Assembly (NCBI GenBank): GCA_038326945.1
Contig: JBBQKN010000012.1
Location: 8,111-72,110 of the forward strand
DNA length: 64,000 nt
Source: Hyphomicrobiales bacterium
GTDB taxonomy: Bacteria > Pseudomonadota > Alphaproteobacteria > Rhizobiales > Methyloligellaceae
Reading direction: 5' to 3'
This document shows, in pieces, positions 7,727-13,367 of this stretch. The position numbers and the translations under genes are program-made. The notes under the pieces were generated by a model. It was not told where the DNA came from and searched no databases. It saw only the letters and a program-made list of their open reading frames with translations. Each line of letters starts with the position of its first letter. Position 1 is the stretch's first letter.

Positions 7727-9463
7727 CTAGAACAGGCCGGCAATACGCCCGTCAGAGGCGAGTTCGATATTGTTGGCGGCGGGGACCCTGGGCAGGCCTG
7801 GCATGGTCATGATGTCGCCGCAGACGACGACGACGAACTCGGCCCCGGCCGAGAGCCTGATCTCCCGGATCGGAATGATGTGGTCGCTGGGAGCGCCCTT
7901 GGCATCCGGATTGGTGGAAAAGCTGTATTGGGTCTTGGCGATGCAGATCGGGAATTTGCCGAAACCCTCCTTCTCCAGCTCGGCGAAGCGGTCGCGCACG
8001 CTCTTATCGGCGCTGATATCGGCGGCGCCGTAGATCTCCTGGGCGATCGTGCGGGTCTTGTCCCAGAGCGACATGTCGTCGGGGTAAAGCGGGTGAAAAT
8101 CGCTGGGCTTGGTCTCGATCGTGCGCACCACCGCATGGGCGAGGTCGGCGGCGCCCTCGCCGCCTTGCGCCCAATGATCGGCCAGCACGCATTCGACGCT
8201 GATTGCGGCGCAGAGACGCTGGAGCAGCGCCACTTCGGCCTCGGTATCGGTCGAAAAGCGATTAAGGGAGACGATCACCGGCAAATCGTAGCGCCTGAGA
8301 TTCTGAACGTGTCGTTCCAGATTGGCGAAGCCCTTCTCCAGCGCCTGTAGATTTTCCTTCTTCAGGTCGTCCTTGGCGACTCCGCCATGCATCTTGAGCG
8401 CGCGGATGGTCGCCACCAGCACGGCGCAATCCGGCTTCAGCCCGGCTTTCCGGCATTTGATGTCAAAGAATTTCTCCGCTCCGAGATCGGCGCCGAAGCC
8501 GGCTTCGGTGTTGGTGTAATCGGCGAGCTTCAGCGCGGCCTTGGTGGCGATCACCGAATTGCAGCCATGCGCGATATTGGCGAATGGGCCGCCATGGACG
8601 AAGGCCGGGTTGTTCTCGAGCGTCTGCACCAGGTTCGGGGCCAGCGCGTCCTTAAGCAGCGCCGCCATGGCGCCGGCGGCGGAAAGATCGCTCGACTTCA
8701 CCGCCTTCTTGTCGCGCGTTTGCCCGATTTGAATATTGCCGAGCCGCCGCTGCAAATCGGCAAGGTCGGTGGCAAGGCAGAAAATAGCCATGACCTCGCT
8801 CGCCACGGTGATGTCGAAGCCCGCCTCGCGCGGGAAGCCGTTGGCCGCTCCGCCGAGAGAGCTGACGATCTGGCGCAGCGCCCGGTCGTTCATGTCGACC
8901 GCGCGGCGCCAGGTGACGCGGCGGGTGTCGATGTCGAGCTTGTTGCCCCAATAGACGTGGTTGTCGATCAGCGCCGCGAGCAAATTGTTGGCGGCGCCAA
9001 TCGCATGGAAATCGCCGGTGAAGTGGAGATTGATGTCCTCCATCGGCACGACCTGCGCGTAGCCGCCGCCGGCCGCCCCACCCTTCATGCCGAAGCAAGG
9101 CCCAAGGCTCGGCTCGCGCACGCAGACGAGCGCCTTCTTGCCGATATGATTGAGCGCGTCGCCAAGACCGACCGTGGTCGTGGTCTTGCCCTCGCCCGCG
9201 GGCGTCGGCGTGATCGCGGTGACCAGGATCAGCTTCCCGTCTGGTCGATTGGCAAGAGACGCGATGTAGTCAAGCGAGATCTTCCCCTTGTAGTGCCCGT
9301 AAGGCAGCACGTATTCGGCGGGAATATCGAGTTTGTCCGCGGCCACCTCGATAATCGGCCGCATCGTAGCCGCTTGCGAGATTTCGATGTCGGATTTCGG
9401 CCTGCGGTGTTGTTCGTCTGGGCGCCGGGTTTTATTGGCGCTCTCACGCGATTCGACTGACAT
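7727..9463 (-). CDS. ftfL: Formate-tetrahydrofolate ligase
   Basis: [51 protein letters not shown] and MTMPGLP; start chosen at the ATG at 9463. Confidence 0.95.
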
Positions 9464-9580
9464 TGAGGACTGCCCCTGGGAACTGACGTGCGGCAATTGC
9501 CACTGGAATAGGCAGGGTAATTCATTCACTTGCCATCTTGCAATCGTCTGTGCAGTTTCAGCGGCCGGAGGGAGACCCAA

Positions 9581-10843
9581 ATGACGCCAGTCGACCTGTT
9601 GAAGTCCATGTTTCAGGCGGCGGTTGACGCCGCTCAGCCCGCGCTCTGCCTGCCGCCGCATTTGCCTGCACCGCCCAAGGGCCGCACCATCGTAATTGGC
9701 GCGGGCAAAGCCAGCGGGGCCATGGCCAAGGCGGTCGAGGACAATTGGAAGGGGCCGCTCGAAGGCCTGGTGGTGACCCGCTACGGCCACCGCCTGCCGA
9801 CAACGCGGATCGAGGTGATCGAGGCCGCCCACCCGGTGCCTGACGCGGCTGGCCGCGAGGCGGCGGCGCGCATCCTCCAGCTCGTGCAGGGACTCTCATC
9901 CGACGATCTCGTGCTTTGCCTCATCTCCGGCGGCGGCTCGGCCCTGCTCGCTCTGCCGGCTGAAGGCGTGAGCCTCGAGGACAAGCAGGCGGTGAACAAG
10001 GCGCTGCTCAAATCGGGTGCCACCATCGGCGAGATGAACGCGGTGCGGAAGCATCTCTCGGCGATCAAGGGCGGACGCCTCGCGCTCGCGGCATCGCCAG
10101 CGAAAGTCGTAAGCCTGATGATCTCCGACGTGCCCGGAGACGACCCATCGGTGATCGCCTCAGGGCCGACGGTTCACGACTCCACGACATTCGCCGACGC
10201 GCTCGCCATTCTCGACAAATACGGCATCGTGCCGCCACCCTCGATCATTGCTCGCCTCAACAGCGGCGCCGAGGAAACGCCGAAGCCCGGCGACCCGCGT
10301 CTGGCACGCGTCGAGAACATCATGATCGCGACGCCGCAAGCCTCGCTCGAGGCCGCCGCTGCCGTTGCCCGCACTCACGGCGTGACCCCGGTCATTCTCG
10401 GCAACGCGCTCGAGGGCGAGTCGCGCGACGTGGGGCTCGTCCACGCCGGCATCGCGCGCCAATGCGCCGAGTTCTCGCAACCGGCCGCGGCGCCTTGCGT
10501 GCTGTTGTCCGGCGGGGAGACCACGATCACGCTCAAGGGCAAAGGCAAAGGCGGCCGCAACACCGAATTCCTGCTAGCGCTTGCCATCGCGCTCGAGGGC
10601 AAGCCCGGCATTTACGGCGTCGCCGCCGACACCGACGGCATCGACGGCTCCGAGGACAATGCCGGCGCCATCATGACCCCCGACACGCTCGCTCGCGCCG
10701 CCGCCGCCGGTCTCGACGCCAAGGCCATGCTCGCCGACAACGATCCTTGGACCTTCTTCAAGGGCATCGGCGATCTCTTGATGACCGGCCCGACGCTCAC
10801 CAACGTCAACGACTTCCGCGCCGTGCTGATCGAGAAGGACTGA
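9581..10843 (+). CDS. gck: Glycerate 2-kinase, MOFRL/TtuD family
   Basis: [40 protein letters not shown] and [10 protein letters not shown]; GGAG RBS before ATG 9581. Confidence 0.92.
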
Positions 10844-10942: not shown

Positions 10943-11515
10943 TTAGCCGTGCATGAGCACGGTGTCGATCACATGGATGACGCCGTTCGACTGCATCACG
11001 TTCTTGACCGTGATTTTGGCGGAATCGCCCTTGGCGTCCCAGATCCACAACTCGCCGTCCTTGATCTGAACCGTGAGCTCTTCGCCCTCGACCGTCTTCA
11101 GCGTGGTCTTGCCGCCGTCCTTCTTGGCCATGGTCATCAGATCCTTGGCGGTGAGGCGGCCGGGAACCACGTGGTAGGTAAGAACACCCACGAGCTGGTC
11201 CTTGTTCTCGGGCTTAAGCAAAGTGTCGACCGTGCCGTTGGGCAGCTTGGCGAAGGCCGCGTTCGTCGGCGCGAATACCGTGAACGGGCCCGGGCCCGAC
11301 AGCGTATCGACCAGGTCTGCGGCCTTGACCGCGGCGACGAGCGTGGTGTGATCCTTCGAGTTGACCGCGTTCTGAATGATGTTCTTGGACGGATACATCG
11401 CCGCACCGCCAACGGTGACACTCATCTCCTTGGCCACACTGGGAGCAATGGCGACAGCCGATACGGCCAGAGCCGCGGCGGCAACACCGGACAGCACAAC
11501 ACTTGAAAACTTCAT
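10943..11515 (-). CDS. Secreted fasciclin (FAS1) domain protein
   Basis: Signal peptide MKFSSVVLSGVAAAALAVS; GPFTVFAPTNAAF, LTYHVV and NGVIHVID motifs; AAGGAG RBS. Confidence 0.92.
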   Translation of the reverse strand: MKFSSVVLSGVAAAALAVSAVAIAPSVAKEMSVTVGGAAMYPSKNIIQNAVNSKDHTTLVAAVKAADLVDTLSGPGPFTVFAPTNAAFAKLPNGTVDTLLKPENKDQLVGVLTYHVVPGRLTAKDLMTMAKKDGGKTTLKTVEGEELTVQIKDGELWIWDAKGDSAKITVKNVMQSNGVIHVIDTVLMHG

Positions 11516-11567: not shown

Positions 11568-11623
11568 AGTTACGGAGGAGTGCGCGCGGCGGACGCGGTG
11601 ATGCGTGTTGAACTTTTCGTGAG
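11568..11623 (-). promoter_or_regulatory. Putative ECF-type promoter module upstream of the fasciclin gene (copy 1)
   Basis: Minus strand: CTCACGAAAAGTTCA-N12-GCGTCC-N16-CGTAACT; nearly the same layout occurs at 11989-12042. Confidence 0.6.
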
Positions 11624-11711
11624 GGAGGCGGGAACGCCGGGTCTAGAGCTTCGCCAAGGCGCGGCTCTGGGTTCCGAGGGTGGTGACGCGCCCCGGTATC
11701 GGTCTCAACCG

Positions 11712-11741
11712 AAAAGGGCACCCGCCGGAAAGCGGGTGCCC
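11712..11741 (-). terminator. Rho-independent terminator downstream of the small ORF
   Basis: Minus strand reads GGGCACCCGC-TTTCCG-GCGGGTGCCC-TTTT (perfect 10-bp stem). Confidence 0.8.
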
Positions 11742-11804
11742 AATAAGGCAGGGGGAATAGGTTGGTGGTGGTCATGCGATCACCGAACCGGGAACCCGCG
11801 ACGC

Positions 11805-11903
11805 CTACGGGTGGTAGGTCTGGGCGTAAGCGAACTGCTCGGCCATTGCCGGCGCGGCGGCGGCGGTGGCAATCAATGCGATGGCAAGGAAGATCGTCTT
11901 CAT
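11805..11903 (-). CDS. Unannotated 32-aa signal-peptide ORF, MKTIFLAIALIATAAAAPAMA-EQFAYAQTYHP
   Basis: GAGGAG RBS 7 nt before the ATG, a Sec-type signal with an AMA cleavage motif, its own promoter copy and its own terminator; below the ORF-track size cutoff. Confidence 0.65.
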   Translation of the reverse strand: MKTIFLAIALIATAAAAPAMAEQFAYAQTYHP

Positions 11904-11988
11904 GGGGTTCTCCTCAGTTTGTTGGCGGCCTGTTGATCCAGGGGTCGAACCGGCTGGCCATTTTGTCCGATCGCCCATTTGATGCTGT

Positions 11989-12042
11989 AGCTACGGAAAA
12001 CGGTTCGCCCGGACGCCTGGGGGCGAGTGAACTTTTCGTGAG
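11989..12042 (-). promoter_or_regulatory. Putative ECF-type promoter module upstream of the small ORF (copy 2)
   Basis: Minus strand: CTCACGAAAAGTTCA-N11-GCGTCC-N15-CGTAGCT. Confidence 0.6.
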
Positions 12043-12102
12043 CTCGATGATGGGACCTCTACCCGGATCGGGTCCGGGCGTGACGGGGCGGCAGAGAAGC
12101 CC

Positions 12103-12813
12103 CTACAGGCTCGCGAGCTTGCCGTTGGCGATGATCGGGCCGGTGGGCTGGCCTGTCGGGGAGCCTCCACGCGGCTCGAGGGTAATGGCGAGGGTCGAAT
12201 CGACGCTCACATGCGGCTGCAGCTCGGGCGGAACCGCGACCTTCACCGGCCGCGTCGGATCGACCAGACCGAGCGAGTGCGGGGTGCCGCCCGGCGGGAT
12301 CACCCACAATTCATAAGATTGCTGCTGCTGGCCTGTAATCAACGCTGCGGGCACGATGGTGACGCTGCCATCGGCGGGATTGGACGCGGCAAGGAACCCG
12401 GGCTGGCCCGACTTCTCGTCGAGCTGGGCGACCAGCGGCGGCCCGAGCGCAGGAATCTGGGCAAGATAGATGAGACCGGCCATGCTCGCGGCCGCGAGCC
12501 CCGCCGAAGCGAGGGCAACAGGGCGCCAGAAGGCGAGGCTCTGCCATAGGCCGCCTGGCTCGGGGGCCGGCTTGACGGCAATGCGCGCTTCGATGCGTTG
12601 CCACACCTCCGCCGGCGGCGGCACGGGCGCGACGCCTTCGGCGAGCACGGCGAGGCGCGCTTCCCAGAACGCAATTTCGGTCGCCAACTCAGGCTCGCGC
12701 TCAAGCCGAAGCTCGAGGGCGCGACGCTCCTCGGCGCCAAGCACGCCAAGGACGTATTCGGCAGCGAGAAAATCGCGATCCTCGCCCGCGCCTATGGTCT
12801 GGTCGTCGCTCAT
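12103..12813 (-). CDS. Anti-sigma factor, RskA (anti-sigma K) family
   Basis: AAEYVLGVL N-terminus, one TM helix, YELWVIP and LAITLEPRGGSPTGQPTGP; ATGA overlap with the sigma gene stop. Confidence 0.9.
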   Translation of the reverse strand: MSDDQTIGAGEDRDFLAAEYVLGVLGAEERRALELRLEREPELATEIAFWEARLAVLAEGVAPVPPPAEVWQRIEARIAVKPAPEPGGLWQSLAFWRPVALASAGLAAASMAGLIYLAQIPALGPPLVAQLDEKSGQPGFLAASNPADGSVTIVPAALITGQQQQSYELWVIPPGGTPHSLGLVDPTRPVKVAVPPELQPHVSVDSTLAITLEPRGGSPTGQPTGPIIANGKLASL

Positions 12814-13367
12814 CGCTCCAAACACGCTCTCAGTTTCAACAACCCGCGCCTGATCCAGCTCTTCATGGTGCCGAGCGGGACGGCGGATTTGCGCGCAAGC
12901 TCGTCATAGGTCAGCCCGTCCAGGAACGCCGCTCTGATCGCCGCCGATTGGCGATCCTCGAGTTCTCGCAGGCAATCGTTGAGGCGCGCCCGCTCCTGGC
13001 CGGTTTCGATCAGATCGACGGCGCTTGGGCTTGCGTCGGCCACGTCGTCGGCGGCCTCGATCGGCAGGCTGGCACGGGCGACACGACCCGAGCGCAAACG
13101 GTCGATGGCGCGGTTGCGCGCGATGGCCACGAGCCAACTGATCGGGCTCGCCACGCTCTCATCGAAGCGCGCTGCCTTTCGCCACACGGTAAGATAGACC
13201 TCTTGCAACAAATCCTCGGCCTCGCTTCTGTCATTTAAGATACGCAGGCCGACGCCGAATAGCTTCGCCGAGGTGTTGGCATAAACGAGGCGGAGAGCGT
13301 CGCGGTCGCCCGCCGCCACGCGGCCGAGGGCGGCGACAAGCTGCCGGCGTCTCGTCTGTGCATCCAT
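12810..13367 (-). CDS. ECF RNA polymerase sigma factor (SigK-like)
   Basis: EAEDLLQEVYLTVW, WLVAIARNRAID and PLGTMKSWIRRGL; probable start MDAQT at 13367. Confidence 0.9.
   Translation of the reverse strand: MDAQTRRRQLVAALGRVAAGDRDALRLVYANTSAKLFGVGLRILNDRSEAEDLLQEVYLTVWRKAARFDESVASPISWLVAIARNRAIDRLRSGRVARASLPIEAADDVADASPSAVDLIETGQERARLNDCLRELEDRQSAAIRAAFLDGLTYDELARKSAVPLGTMKSWIRRGLLKLRACLER

Follow-up and report, generated by a model that had tools for sequence, protein, structure and literature searches.

The 32-aa open reading frame (ORF) located on the minus strand between an RskA-type anti-sigma gene and a fasciclin gene in the window (i.e., the whole 64,000-nt stretch of Methyloceanibacter DNA that was analysed) appears to be a genuine coding micro-gene, beyond what chance would be expected to leave, as its start, frame and stop are conserved in two other genomes with the same gene layout, and as the peptide family to which it belongs is under purifying selection in the frame of the ORF alone. 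Most likely, its product is a micropeptide that is exported, the gene having newly joined an ECF regulon of two genes. The account of its origin and workings that is put forward here with moderate confidence is that of a functional micro-gene, copied from the native locus of its family, which would be driven together with the fasciclin gene and whose pre-peptide would be exported and cleaved to an 11-mer.

Results

Organization of the locus

On the minus strand, the genes follow one another (5' to 3') as ECF sigma factor, RskA-type anti-sigma factor, 32-aa ORF and fasciclin gene, and the features of the locus are as follows:

12810..13364, minus strand: ECF sigma gene, SigK-like (Pfam Sigma70_r2 and r4_2; start taken at the ATG at 13364)
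12103..12825, minus strand: RskA-type anti-sigma gene (Pfam RskA_C, 3.5e-19, above the cut-off)
11991..12040, minus strand: distal (duplicated) three-box ECF promoter, ahead of the small ORF (motif comparison)
11904..11970, minus strand: 5' UTR of native peptide family origin, including the Shine-Dalgarno (SD) sequence (homology to contig C67 and to the native copies of relatives)
11805..11903, minus strand: small ORF, 32 aa (paralogues, orthologues, selection test)
11716..11775, minus strand: ORF2 remnant, codons 1-20, MTTTNLFPLPYWAPAFRRVP (likeness to the main-locus ORF2)
11707..11741, minus strand: hairpin GGGCACCCGC-N6-GCGGGTGCCC and U-tract (terminator scan, pattern search)
11570..11621, minus strand: proximal (orthologous) three-box ECF promoter, ahead of the fasciclin gene (architecture shared by 23 of 24 related modules)
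10943..11515, minus strand: gene of a fasciclin-domain protein, MPT83/MPT70-like, putatively secreted (Pfam Fasciclin, 2.5e-37)

The sigma ORF is open up to 13553, with the ATG at 13364 being the start chosen, and the best NCBIfam match of its product is PRK12514 (4.7e-60; 202.6 bits, below the curated cut-off of 265), with the SigK subfamily model PRK09646 also matching below its curated cut-off (2.7e-46; 157.6 bits, cut-off 226); the anti-sigma protein exceeds the cut-off of the NCBIfam “antisigma” model NF052375 (108.8 bits, cut-off 100). The Pfam domains and coordinates bear out the position between the anti-sigma and fasciclin genes that the original prediction had given for the small ORF, and the other elements that it had listed were likewise all found on the minus strand, namely, a GAGGAG ribosome binding site (11915-11910, 6 nt ahead of the ATG at 11903), a Sec-type signal, an 11-residue tail and a TAG stop codon (11807-11805). 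Read completely from the ATG at 11903, the ORF gives MKTIFLAIALIATAAAAPAMAEQFAYAQTYHP, which is made up of a predicted 21-aa Sec-type signal (MKT, a hydrophobic core and APAMA; MKTIFLAIALIATAAAAPAMA) and the tail EQFAYAQTYHP.

The inherited 5' UTR holds, in this order, TCGGAC, a GGCCAGCCGG stem and GATCAACAGGCCG. On the other side of the ORF, the ORF2 remnant carries a C/U-rich tract (11761-11747), is devoid of an SD and diverges past codon 20, and the hairpin stem (11741-11716) consists of 11 bp (9 of them GC) followed by UUUUCGGUU, which amounts to the makeup of an intrinsic terminator and is terminator-like by scan, in agreement with the strong downstream terminator that had been predicted. 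Given the U-tract on its 3' side, the hairpin would act here as a plain terminator. No Rfam match at E<=1 overlaps 11700-12050, and nothing above threshold was returned by Pfam or NCBIfam for the window peptide.

A widespread and uncharacterised peptide family

The small ORF belongs (49.7 bits, E 1.5e-12) to a family whose HMM has matches in 101 of 116 Methyloceanibacter genomes, a single genome containing as many as 11 copies spread over several loci. Outside the genus, it matches three of the four genomes in one sister genus, and hardly anything else in the taxonomic family. Two of its paralogues in the same genome lie in tandem on contig C67 (MKTIFLAVALVVTFAAAPVMAEQFSNPFSQQR and MKSIFLAVALVVTFAAAPAMAEQFAYFQAYHP) and have a 5' UTR of ~60 nt and the hairpin in common with the window copy, which is 78% identical to one of them (copy B). 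The ORFs of the family are 30-36 aa long and usually form tandem arrays of one to four copies (arrays were read at 30 loci), and the main family locus is near serine-cycle genes. Each consists of a signal (e.g., MKKLILAVALVVASAAPVLA) and a tail of 9-16 residues that typically takes the form xxFxNxY...R (e.g., EGFPNVYMTR, QDFAQSYSQNR, DTFPNSYMSR and EQFGNPYSQR), with further tail subtypes, including EQFPNNYATDSDAMSR, DNFVNPYATTLGR and QNFDNPFAPTCKSCR, at other loci.

The window ORF keeps the signal pattern M-K-x4-A-x-A-L-x4-A-x-P-x2-A, the Phe at tail position +3 and the stop position, but departs from F-x-[NQ]-x-Y...R and from the C-terminal Arg of the family, as its tail contains a two-residue insertion and ends in YHP. 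This divergent tail subtype is common to copy B on C67 and to the copies in G082, a metagenome-assembled genome of Methyloceanibacter sp.

The family is uncharacterised and is matched by no Pfam, NCBIfam or Rfam model; the window ORF reaches 17.9 bits (E 0.004) against Pfam DUF4148, whose gathering threshold is 27, and does so over residues 1-28, which are essentially the signal peptide. The ORF had been described as hidden, which does not hold, since a public collection already lists a predicted protein with exactly these 32 residues, and many relatives of the peptide are found in such collections as well, either unnamed or annotated as “hypothetical protein”. A contig search, in which the genome's own records were possibly left out, gave no match to the exact window peptide. 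As regards the concern that homologues might extend into a longer protein, of which this copy would be a truncation, 1.84 billion representative proteins yielded 11 significant matches, none of which was a genuine longer protein: some were the short form as such, and the rest could be traced to it by way of a miscalled start, a frameshift or a two-copy fusion.

Coding selection and the signal-like N-terminus

Codon-position entropy and residue conservation were derived from 75 distinct family ORFs. The mean entropy at the three codon positions is 0.54, 0.30 and 0.91, respectively, and residues L10, A15, P17, A20 (-1), F23 (+3) and Y27 (+7) are invariant or nearly so, with the third positions of their codons varying. 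In-frame pN/pS for the whole ORF is 0.44 (1.19 and 2.33 in the shifted frames), with values of 0.28 for the signal (1.51 and 3.59 shifted) and 0.72 for the tail (1.08 and 1.49 shifted). The family is thus protein-coding, and the test of conservation and selection that had been proposed for the ORF finds purifying selection across the family, in the frame of the ORF only.

The predicted signal, as judged by inspection, comprises MK(T/K), 13-14 hydrophobic residues and A-P-x-x-A, with position -1 being Ala in 75 of the 75 members and position -3 being V, A or S. A positively charged n-region, an h-region within the 7-15 residues expected and small residues at -3/-1 are all recognizable by inspection, and the N-terminus would accordingly have the textbook layout of a cleaved Sec signal that is processed by SPase I. 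The same N-terminus, together with AEQF, heads three two-Cys proteins of 67-70 aa in the source genome, which are distant paralogues; its presence on these proteins speaks for a role as a signal, and might be a hint that proteins of this kind gave rise to the short family.

Very short Sec pre-proteins are unusual, and a Sec substrate of 30-32 aa would be among the shortest known, which leaves room for a reading in which no cleavage takes place and the product is a 30-aa single-pass membrane micro-protein (N-in, with the 10 tail residues outside) acting as a modulator of a membrane partner, which in the case of the window copy could be RskA or its site-1/site-2 proteases. The hydrophobic segment is indeed unusually conserved for a signal (the abovementioned pN/pS of 0.28, with A9, L10, A15 and P17/18 being invariant), but the core extends over just 13-14 residues before a helix-breaking Pro, the invariant small-x-Ala site with E/Q/D at +1 is typical of cleaved signals, and the 67-70-aa proteins headed by the same N-terminus look soluble, all of which makes the membrane micro-protein an unlikely alternative to the exported peptide.

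Two copies of one ECF promoter

The claim that the ORF has its own upstream copy of the promoter proved correct, the three-box module at 12040-11991 being repeated at 11621-11570. The distal copy comprises box A CACGAAAAGTTCA (12040-12028), a GCGTCC -35 box (12016-12011) and a CCGTAG -10 box (11996-11991), and the proximal copy comprises box A CACGAAAAGTTCA (11621-11609), a GCGTCC -35 box (11596-11591) and a CCGTAA -10 box (11575-11570). These two sites are the only ones in the 2.9-Mb genome with the full module; a -35/-10 pair without box A is also present ahead of a cytochrome-b561-like gene on contig C11, and no such promoter was seen ahead of the sigma gene.

The anti-sigma-to-fasciclin gaps of 23 of the 24 relatives read contain one promoter, consisting of box A, GC(A/G)TCC, 15-16 nt and CCGTA(A/G), with a distance of either 11-12 or 21-23 nt from box A to the -35 box. 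The -35/-10 spacer of the distal copy is 14 nt long, as opposed to 15-16 nt in the 27 instances read outside the source genome (G000) and a near-identical metagenome contig from Logan, and the distal promoter may therefore be a weak one. A comparison of the distal copy in G000 with that in G082 shows all three boxes to be conserved and the spacers to have diverged.

As the promoter in front of the small ORF duplicates the ECF promoter that serves the fasciclin gene, with the same boxes as those preceding the fasciclin gene of the cassette (and the 14-nt spacer), the ORF is plausibly the second member of the regulon of that gene. The original prediction of a secreted micropeptide in an ECF regulon is accordingly upheld as regards the coding nature of the ORF, its Sec/SPase-I-type signal and the duplicated ECF promoter, with regulon membership being plausible.

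Native loci and the terminal hairpin

At 38 of 47 arrays, the palindrome ATAGCC-N4-GGCTAT is found 114-128 nt ahead of the ATG, and the native upstream region also includes a TGTTCGAACGG motif, a 5'-UTR stem (GGCCAGCCGG...CCGGCC) and AAAGGAGAACC directly ahead of the ATG. The palindrome is absent from the copies in the window, on contig C350 of G082 and on the Logan contig, where the ECF promoter takes its place. Homology of the window to the native loci begins at TCGGAC (11970), at about the start of the native 5' UTR, which indicates that the native upstream region has been replaced by the ECF promoter.

On the 3' side, a C/U-rich tract (CUCUUCCC or CCUCCC) directly precedes the terminal hairpin in 38 of the 39 arrays with a perfect hairpin, and the combination of tract and hairpin is seen with every tail subtype and at every locus. 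From one locus to another, the arms of the hairpin covary (e.g., GGGCACCCGC/GCGGGTGCCC versus GGGCACAAG/CTTGTGCCC and GGGCGCCTC/GAGGCGCCC). The pattern TGGGCACCCGC-N6-GCGGGTGCCC is present in 41 of 117 genomes of the genus, nearly always once in each, and nearly every such hairpin that was read has an array of one to four ORFs of 30-34 aa on its 5' side. The ECF-linked copies, as well as a few of the native ones in this clade, have a U-tract 3' of the hairpin; in most species there is no such tract. Most species have a conserved ORF2 (63-80 aa, MTNLFPLPYWAPALKRVPIPLQALDEAF..G.R; no Pfam or NCBIfam match) at the main locus, and both the C/U tract and the hairpin, the arms of which are invariant there, sit inside its 5' end. 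ORF2 is under selection of the coding type, with an in-frame pN/pS of 0.24 on the 5' side of the hairpin and 0.50 on its 3' side, versus 1.3-2.5 off frame.

These features could be taken to mean that RNA is the main functional product, i.e., that the array transcript is a dual-function or 3'-UTR-type regulatory RNA whose single-stranded C/U tract acts, either in trans or in cis, as a seed of the anti-Shine-Dalgarno type, in which case the ECF-driven copy would bring a riboregulator into the regulon. Apart from the near-constant tract and hairpin behind every tail subtype and the covarying arms, this reading can draw on the alphaproteobacterial CCUCCUCCC sRNAs, some of which are co-transcribed with a small ORF (PMC4615179, PMC8034643). 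Rfam, however, gives no match at E<=1, and the main-locus tract is under coding constraint as the NLFPLP stretch of ORF2 (in the segment with a pN/pS of 0.24); moreover, the purifying selection acting on the peptide ORFs argues that any RNA role would be additional and not alternative to that of the peptide. A mainly RNA-based function is thus regarded as improbable. A reading that joins the two has a similarly small chance of being right: a multi-copy exported-peptide system, not described before, with tails of ~10-16 residues (xxFxNxY...R) and its own palindromic operator, the transcripts of which double as C-rich anti-SD riboregulators. On this reading, the system would be coupled at the main locus to the hairpin-containing ORF2 of ~70 aa, and one of its members would have been captured by the SigK-RskA regulon in the G000/G082 lineage, possibly with feedback on RskA by the captured peptide.

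Lineage distribution of the ECF-linked copy

The sigma/anti-sigma/fasciclin module is present in 47 of 117 genomes of the genus, and a fasciclin gene 3' of rskA is conserved throughout Methyloceanibacter. An insert of ~400 nt between these two genes, made up of the small ORF and the second promoter copy, is carried by G000, by G082 (contig C350) and by a Logan contig (SRR19962013, reached via the one-residue peptide variant P0002) only. The same sigma/anti-sigma/ORF/fasciclin layout, with the three promoter boxes kept and the spacers diverged, is seen in L042 and L044, and the start, frame and stop position of the ORF are conserved in the two other genomes that share the layout. The insert is absent from all 24 of the other Methyloceanibacter modules whose gap was read, in which ~120-240 nt separate the anti-sigma and fasciclin genes. 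With 24 modules doing without the ORF, the peptide would not be a core part of SigK/RskA signalling, and its ECF link is a rewiring that is recent and specific to this lineage, and that affected a single paralogue out of a far more extensive family, for which control by a different upstream element is the norm.

The tails of the ECF-linked copies vary between genomes (EQFAYAQTYHP, EQFAYAPTYHP and EQFAFTQAYHP), as opposed to the native tail EQFAYFQAYHP, which is identical in G000 and G082; this faster change could reflect relaxed constraint. It is one of the grounds on which the window copy might be seen as a decaying by-product of a segmental duplication, perhaps still transcribed, with the native family being the functional one. 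The restriction of the copy to three closely related genomes, the faster gain of nonsynonymous changes in its tail than in that of the native copy, the remnant state of the ORF2 piece accompanying it and a promoter spacer that is one nucleotide off would all fit such decay. The start, SD, frame, length and YHP-stop are, however, intact in the three genomes and in a fourth representative (P0074), despite the ~9% divergence of the adjoining anti-sigma protein (91% amino-acid identity), and the promoter boxes have been conserved with the spacers around them diverging, so that decay seems an unlikely explanation for the ECF-linked copy.

Discussion

Proposed origin and mode of action

According to the account preferred here, that of a functional micro-gene brought under ECF control, a segment corresponding to approximately one native transcript (5' UTR, ORF, first 20 codons of ORF2 and hairpin) would have been inserted between rskA and the fasciclin gene in the ancestor of G000, G082 and the organism behind the Logan contig, where it would have come to stand behind a duplicate of the SigK-type three-box promoter, with the native ATAGCC-N4-GGCTAT being lost. 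Once RskA releases the ECF sigma factor, the peptide and fasciclin genes would be transcribed from the twin promoters, with the peptide transcript presumably stopping at the hairpin and U-tract; the pre-peptide would then be exported and cut after AMA, leaving EQFAYAQTYHP in the periplasm. Among the rows listed in the transcriptome tables of M. caenitepidi Gela4 (PMC6417678), a search for lengths of 93-102 nt and for “fasciclin” gave no hits.

Two other readings of the locus were considered and rejected. An attenuator, in which a leader peptide and terminator would control the fasciclin gene, conflicts with the fasciclin gene having its own promoter 3' of the hairpin and is also contradicted by the native arrays, which precede unrelated or convergent genes. 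A truncated fasciclin gene or a duplicated gene start does not fit either, as the ORF matches the peptide family and not the fasciclin N-terminus. The alternatives weighed here, including those discussed together with the results, are not all mutually exclusive.

The original prediction had gone further in proposing the peptide as a possible ligand or feedback signal for the periplasmic domain of the anti-sigma factor. In the form weighed here, the 11-mer, once exported, would feed back on ECF activity by binding to RskA_C in the periplasm, or else to the fasciclin protein. What speaks for this are the position of the ORF and the shared promoter, besides the dual role of RskA as both an inhibitor and an activator of SigK, the switch mechanism of which is not established (PMC7509140); given that 24 other modules of the genus do without the peptide and that the family is normally encoded elsewhere, under the control of a different element, such feedback is deemed very unlikely. 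That the family represents RiPP or cofactor precursors encoded by tandem leader and core genes is highly improbable: the F-x-N and Y-x-T/Q motifs do resemble aromatic-x-residue cyclophane motifs, and the tandem genes, whose products combine a constant N-terminus with a C-terminal core that varies but retains invariant Phe and Tyr, would be in line with it, but in six 12-kb neighbourhoods no radical-SAM, MNIO, P450 or other maturase gene, nor an RRE gene, was seen within ~5 kb, the N-terminus is similar to a Sec signal and not to a RiPP leader, and ORF2 is without a Pfam or NCBIfam match. A type I toxin is considered unlikely, as the A-x-A cleavage site does not vary and the tail is both polar and conserved.

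Comparison with known systems

Phr-type pro-peptides of Firmicutes are ~38-57 aa long, have to be processed a second time and act through partner Rap receptors. The family described here resembles them in that a short pre-peptide with a Sec signal would give rise to a small peptide outside the cytoplasm, and in being often multi-copy; the differences are that the precursor is 30-36 aa long, that the organism is Gram-negative and that there is no sequence relationship. No cognate receptor gene has been identified for the peptide family.

As far as the gene neighbourhood is concerned, the closest counterpart is the mpt83-sigK-rskA cassette (ECF18/19), which, according to PMC7509140 (citing Veyrier 2008), is conserved, has a SigK site upstream of mpt83 and is found in Gram-negatives as well. 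The window shares with it an ECF sigma factor, an RskA_C anti-sigma factor and an adjacent fasciclin gene with a sigma-specific promoter. It differs in having a second promoter copy and a 32-aa signal-peptide ORF between rskA and the fasciclin gene, an insertion that is not described for the cassette in PMC7509140 and is absent from the 24 related modules, and in a sigma factor that falls below the NCBIfam SigK cut-off. The three-part sigma/anti-sigma/fasciclin arrangement is itself conserved across Methyloceanibacter.

The transcript, in turn, is reminiscent of CcaF1/CcsR of Rhodobacter sphaeroides and of the cuckoo (alpha-r14) sRNAs, in which a small ORF is likewise followed by C-rich anti-SD-like motifs associated with hairpins, likewise in Alphaproteobacteria and under the control of stress sigma factors (PMC8034643, PMC4615179). 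There, however, the motif is found in the loops of repeated hairpins, whereas here a single-stranded tract precedes one terminal hairpin, and the small ORF encodes a predicted signal-peptide product and not a DUF1127 protein, with no Rfam match being found. The small secreted proteins of DUF4148, finally, are longer than the peptides of this family, the mature part of which is without a match to that model.

Implications

To our knowledge, very few Sec-exported peptides of ~10 residues have been known from Gram-negative bacteria, and we know of none described in SigK/RskA/fasciclin modules. The family presented here amounts to hundreds of copies in over 100 species-level genomes, under clear purifying selection in the frame of the ORF, and the window offers a natural experiment in which one peptide type is found both under native control and under an ECF sigma factor promoter. 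Its hairpin is likewise seen in two guises, here as a terminator and elsewhere within a coding region. Peptides that proved to be exported and active would give methylotrophic Alphaproteobacteria as a testable setting for peptide signalling or for micro-effectors of the envelope; otherwise, the locus would still illustrate the recruitment of a gene into an ECF regulon by promoter duplication. Should the joint peptide and RNA reading be true, this would be a natural case in which a sigma factor for envelope stress, in a Gram-negative bacterium, has a diffusible peptide signal of the periplasm under its command.

Sequence Elements of the Peptide Arrays

At the main peptide locus of the relatives (L032, L037, L016, L036 and others), where the terminal hairpin of the native array falls within a second reading frame, this conserved ORF2 of ~70 aa (MTNLFPLPYWAPALKRVPIPLQALDEAF..G.R) starts ~50 nt 3' of the last peptide gene, and its codons 10-18 hold an invariant 26-nt hairpin (GGGCACCCGC-N6-GCGGGTGCCC), the arms of which show no change in any copy; the codons flanking it vary synonymously (pN/pS of 0.24 and 0.50). 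Searches of Pfam and NCBIfam returned no match for ORF2, a remnant of which lies in the window:

11775-11716, (-) strand: ORF2 remnant

The conserved palindrome ATAGCC-N4-GGCTAT is found 5' of 38 of the 47 arrays. In many cases AAAGCACCGAC lies ahead of it, with TTGGG and TGTTCGAACGG on its 3' side. It occurs as follows:

~114-128 nt 5' of the first ATG: native arrays (L006, L016, L032 and others)
L009 ~1255-1275: contig C67 of the window's own genome

A related motif (ATAGC...GGTATTGGGAAG) precedes at least one longer paralogue (the C2 copy), and the palindrome is probably an operator for a regulator of the whole micropeptide family.

Longer Paralogues and an Apparently Frameshifted Family Member

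Outside the window, the same genome encodes three secreted two-Cys proteins of 67-70 aa (e.g., MRKYLIAAALTVAFATPALAEQFYIAFDEASHKCEMMHN...MKECN) and a further micropeptide gene:

C2:64283-64351, C35:25544-25624 and C30:30992-31066: two-Cys proteins
C2:64644-64706, (-) strand: micropeptide family member with the tail HNFPSPFEFVCKHCR

The three two-Cys proteins, which belong to no family in Pfam or NCBIfam, share the signal peptide and AEQF start with the micropeptides; the short family may have evolved from them. The further member carries an apparent frameshift inside its signal peptide, which reflects either pseudogenization or a mistake in the assembly.

Promoter Architecture and Genomic Neighbourhood

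Within the intergenic regions L045-L072 (the relatives' fasciclin promoters), box A (CACGAAAACGTCA) lies either 11-12 nt or 21-23 nt from the -35 box, and as these two classes differ by one helical turn, box A would seem to be a face-of-helix-dependent site (UP-like or an activator site) outside the core promoter. One motif lacking box A was found outside the window:

C11:75082-75055, (-) strand: GCATCC-N16-CCGTAA

It sits ~50 nt 5' of a gene for a cytochrome-b561-like membrane protein (MESKTDVSTHKQEVIYRHSGAVRATHWVN...), and this gene may be the third one that the ECF sigma factor controls.

The neighbours of the peptide locus and of the ECF sigma/anti-sigma/fasciclin module include:

L009 1802-2077, (-) strand; L002 417-809; also L004, L005 and L073-L077: Cys-rich secreted protein of ~90 aa
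Window 7727-10843: formate-tetrahydrofolate ligase-like ORF and DUF4147/MOFRL (glycerate kinase-type) gene

Many species encode the Cys-rich protein (...C..DY..YC.EYGLE......C....AGEVSQAEV.RRK) at 0.3-5 kb from the main peptide locus, in some cases twice. The two genes flanking the module fit the lifestyle of a serine-cycle methylotroph.
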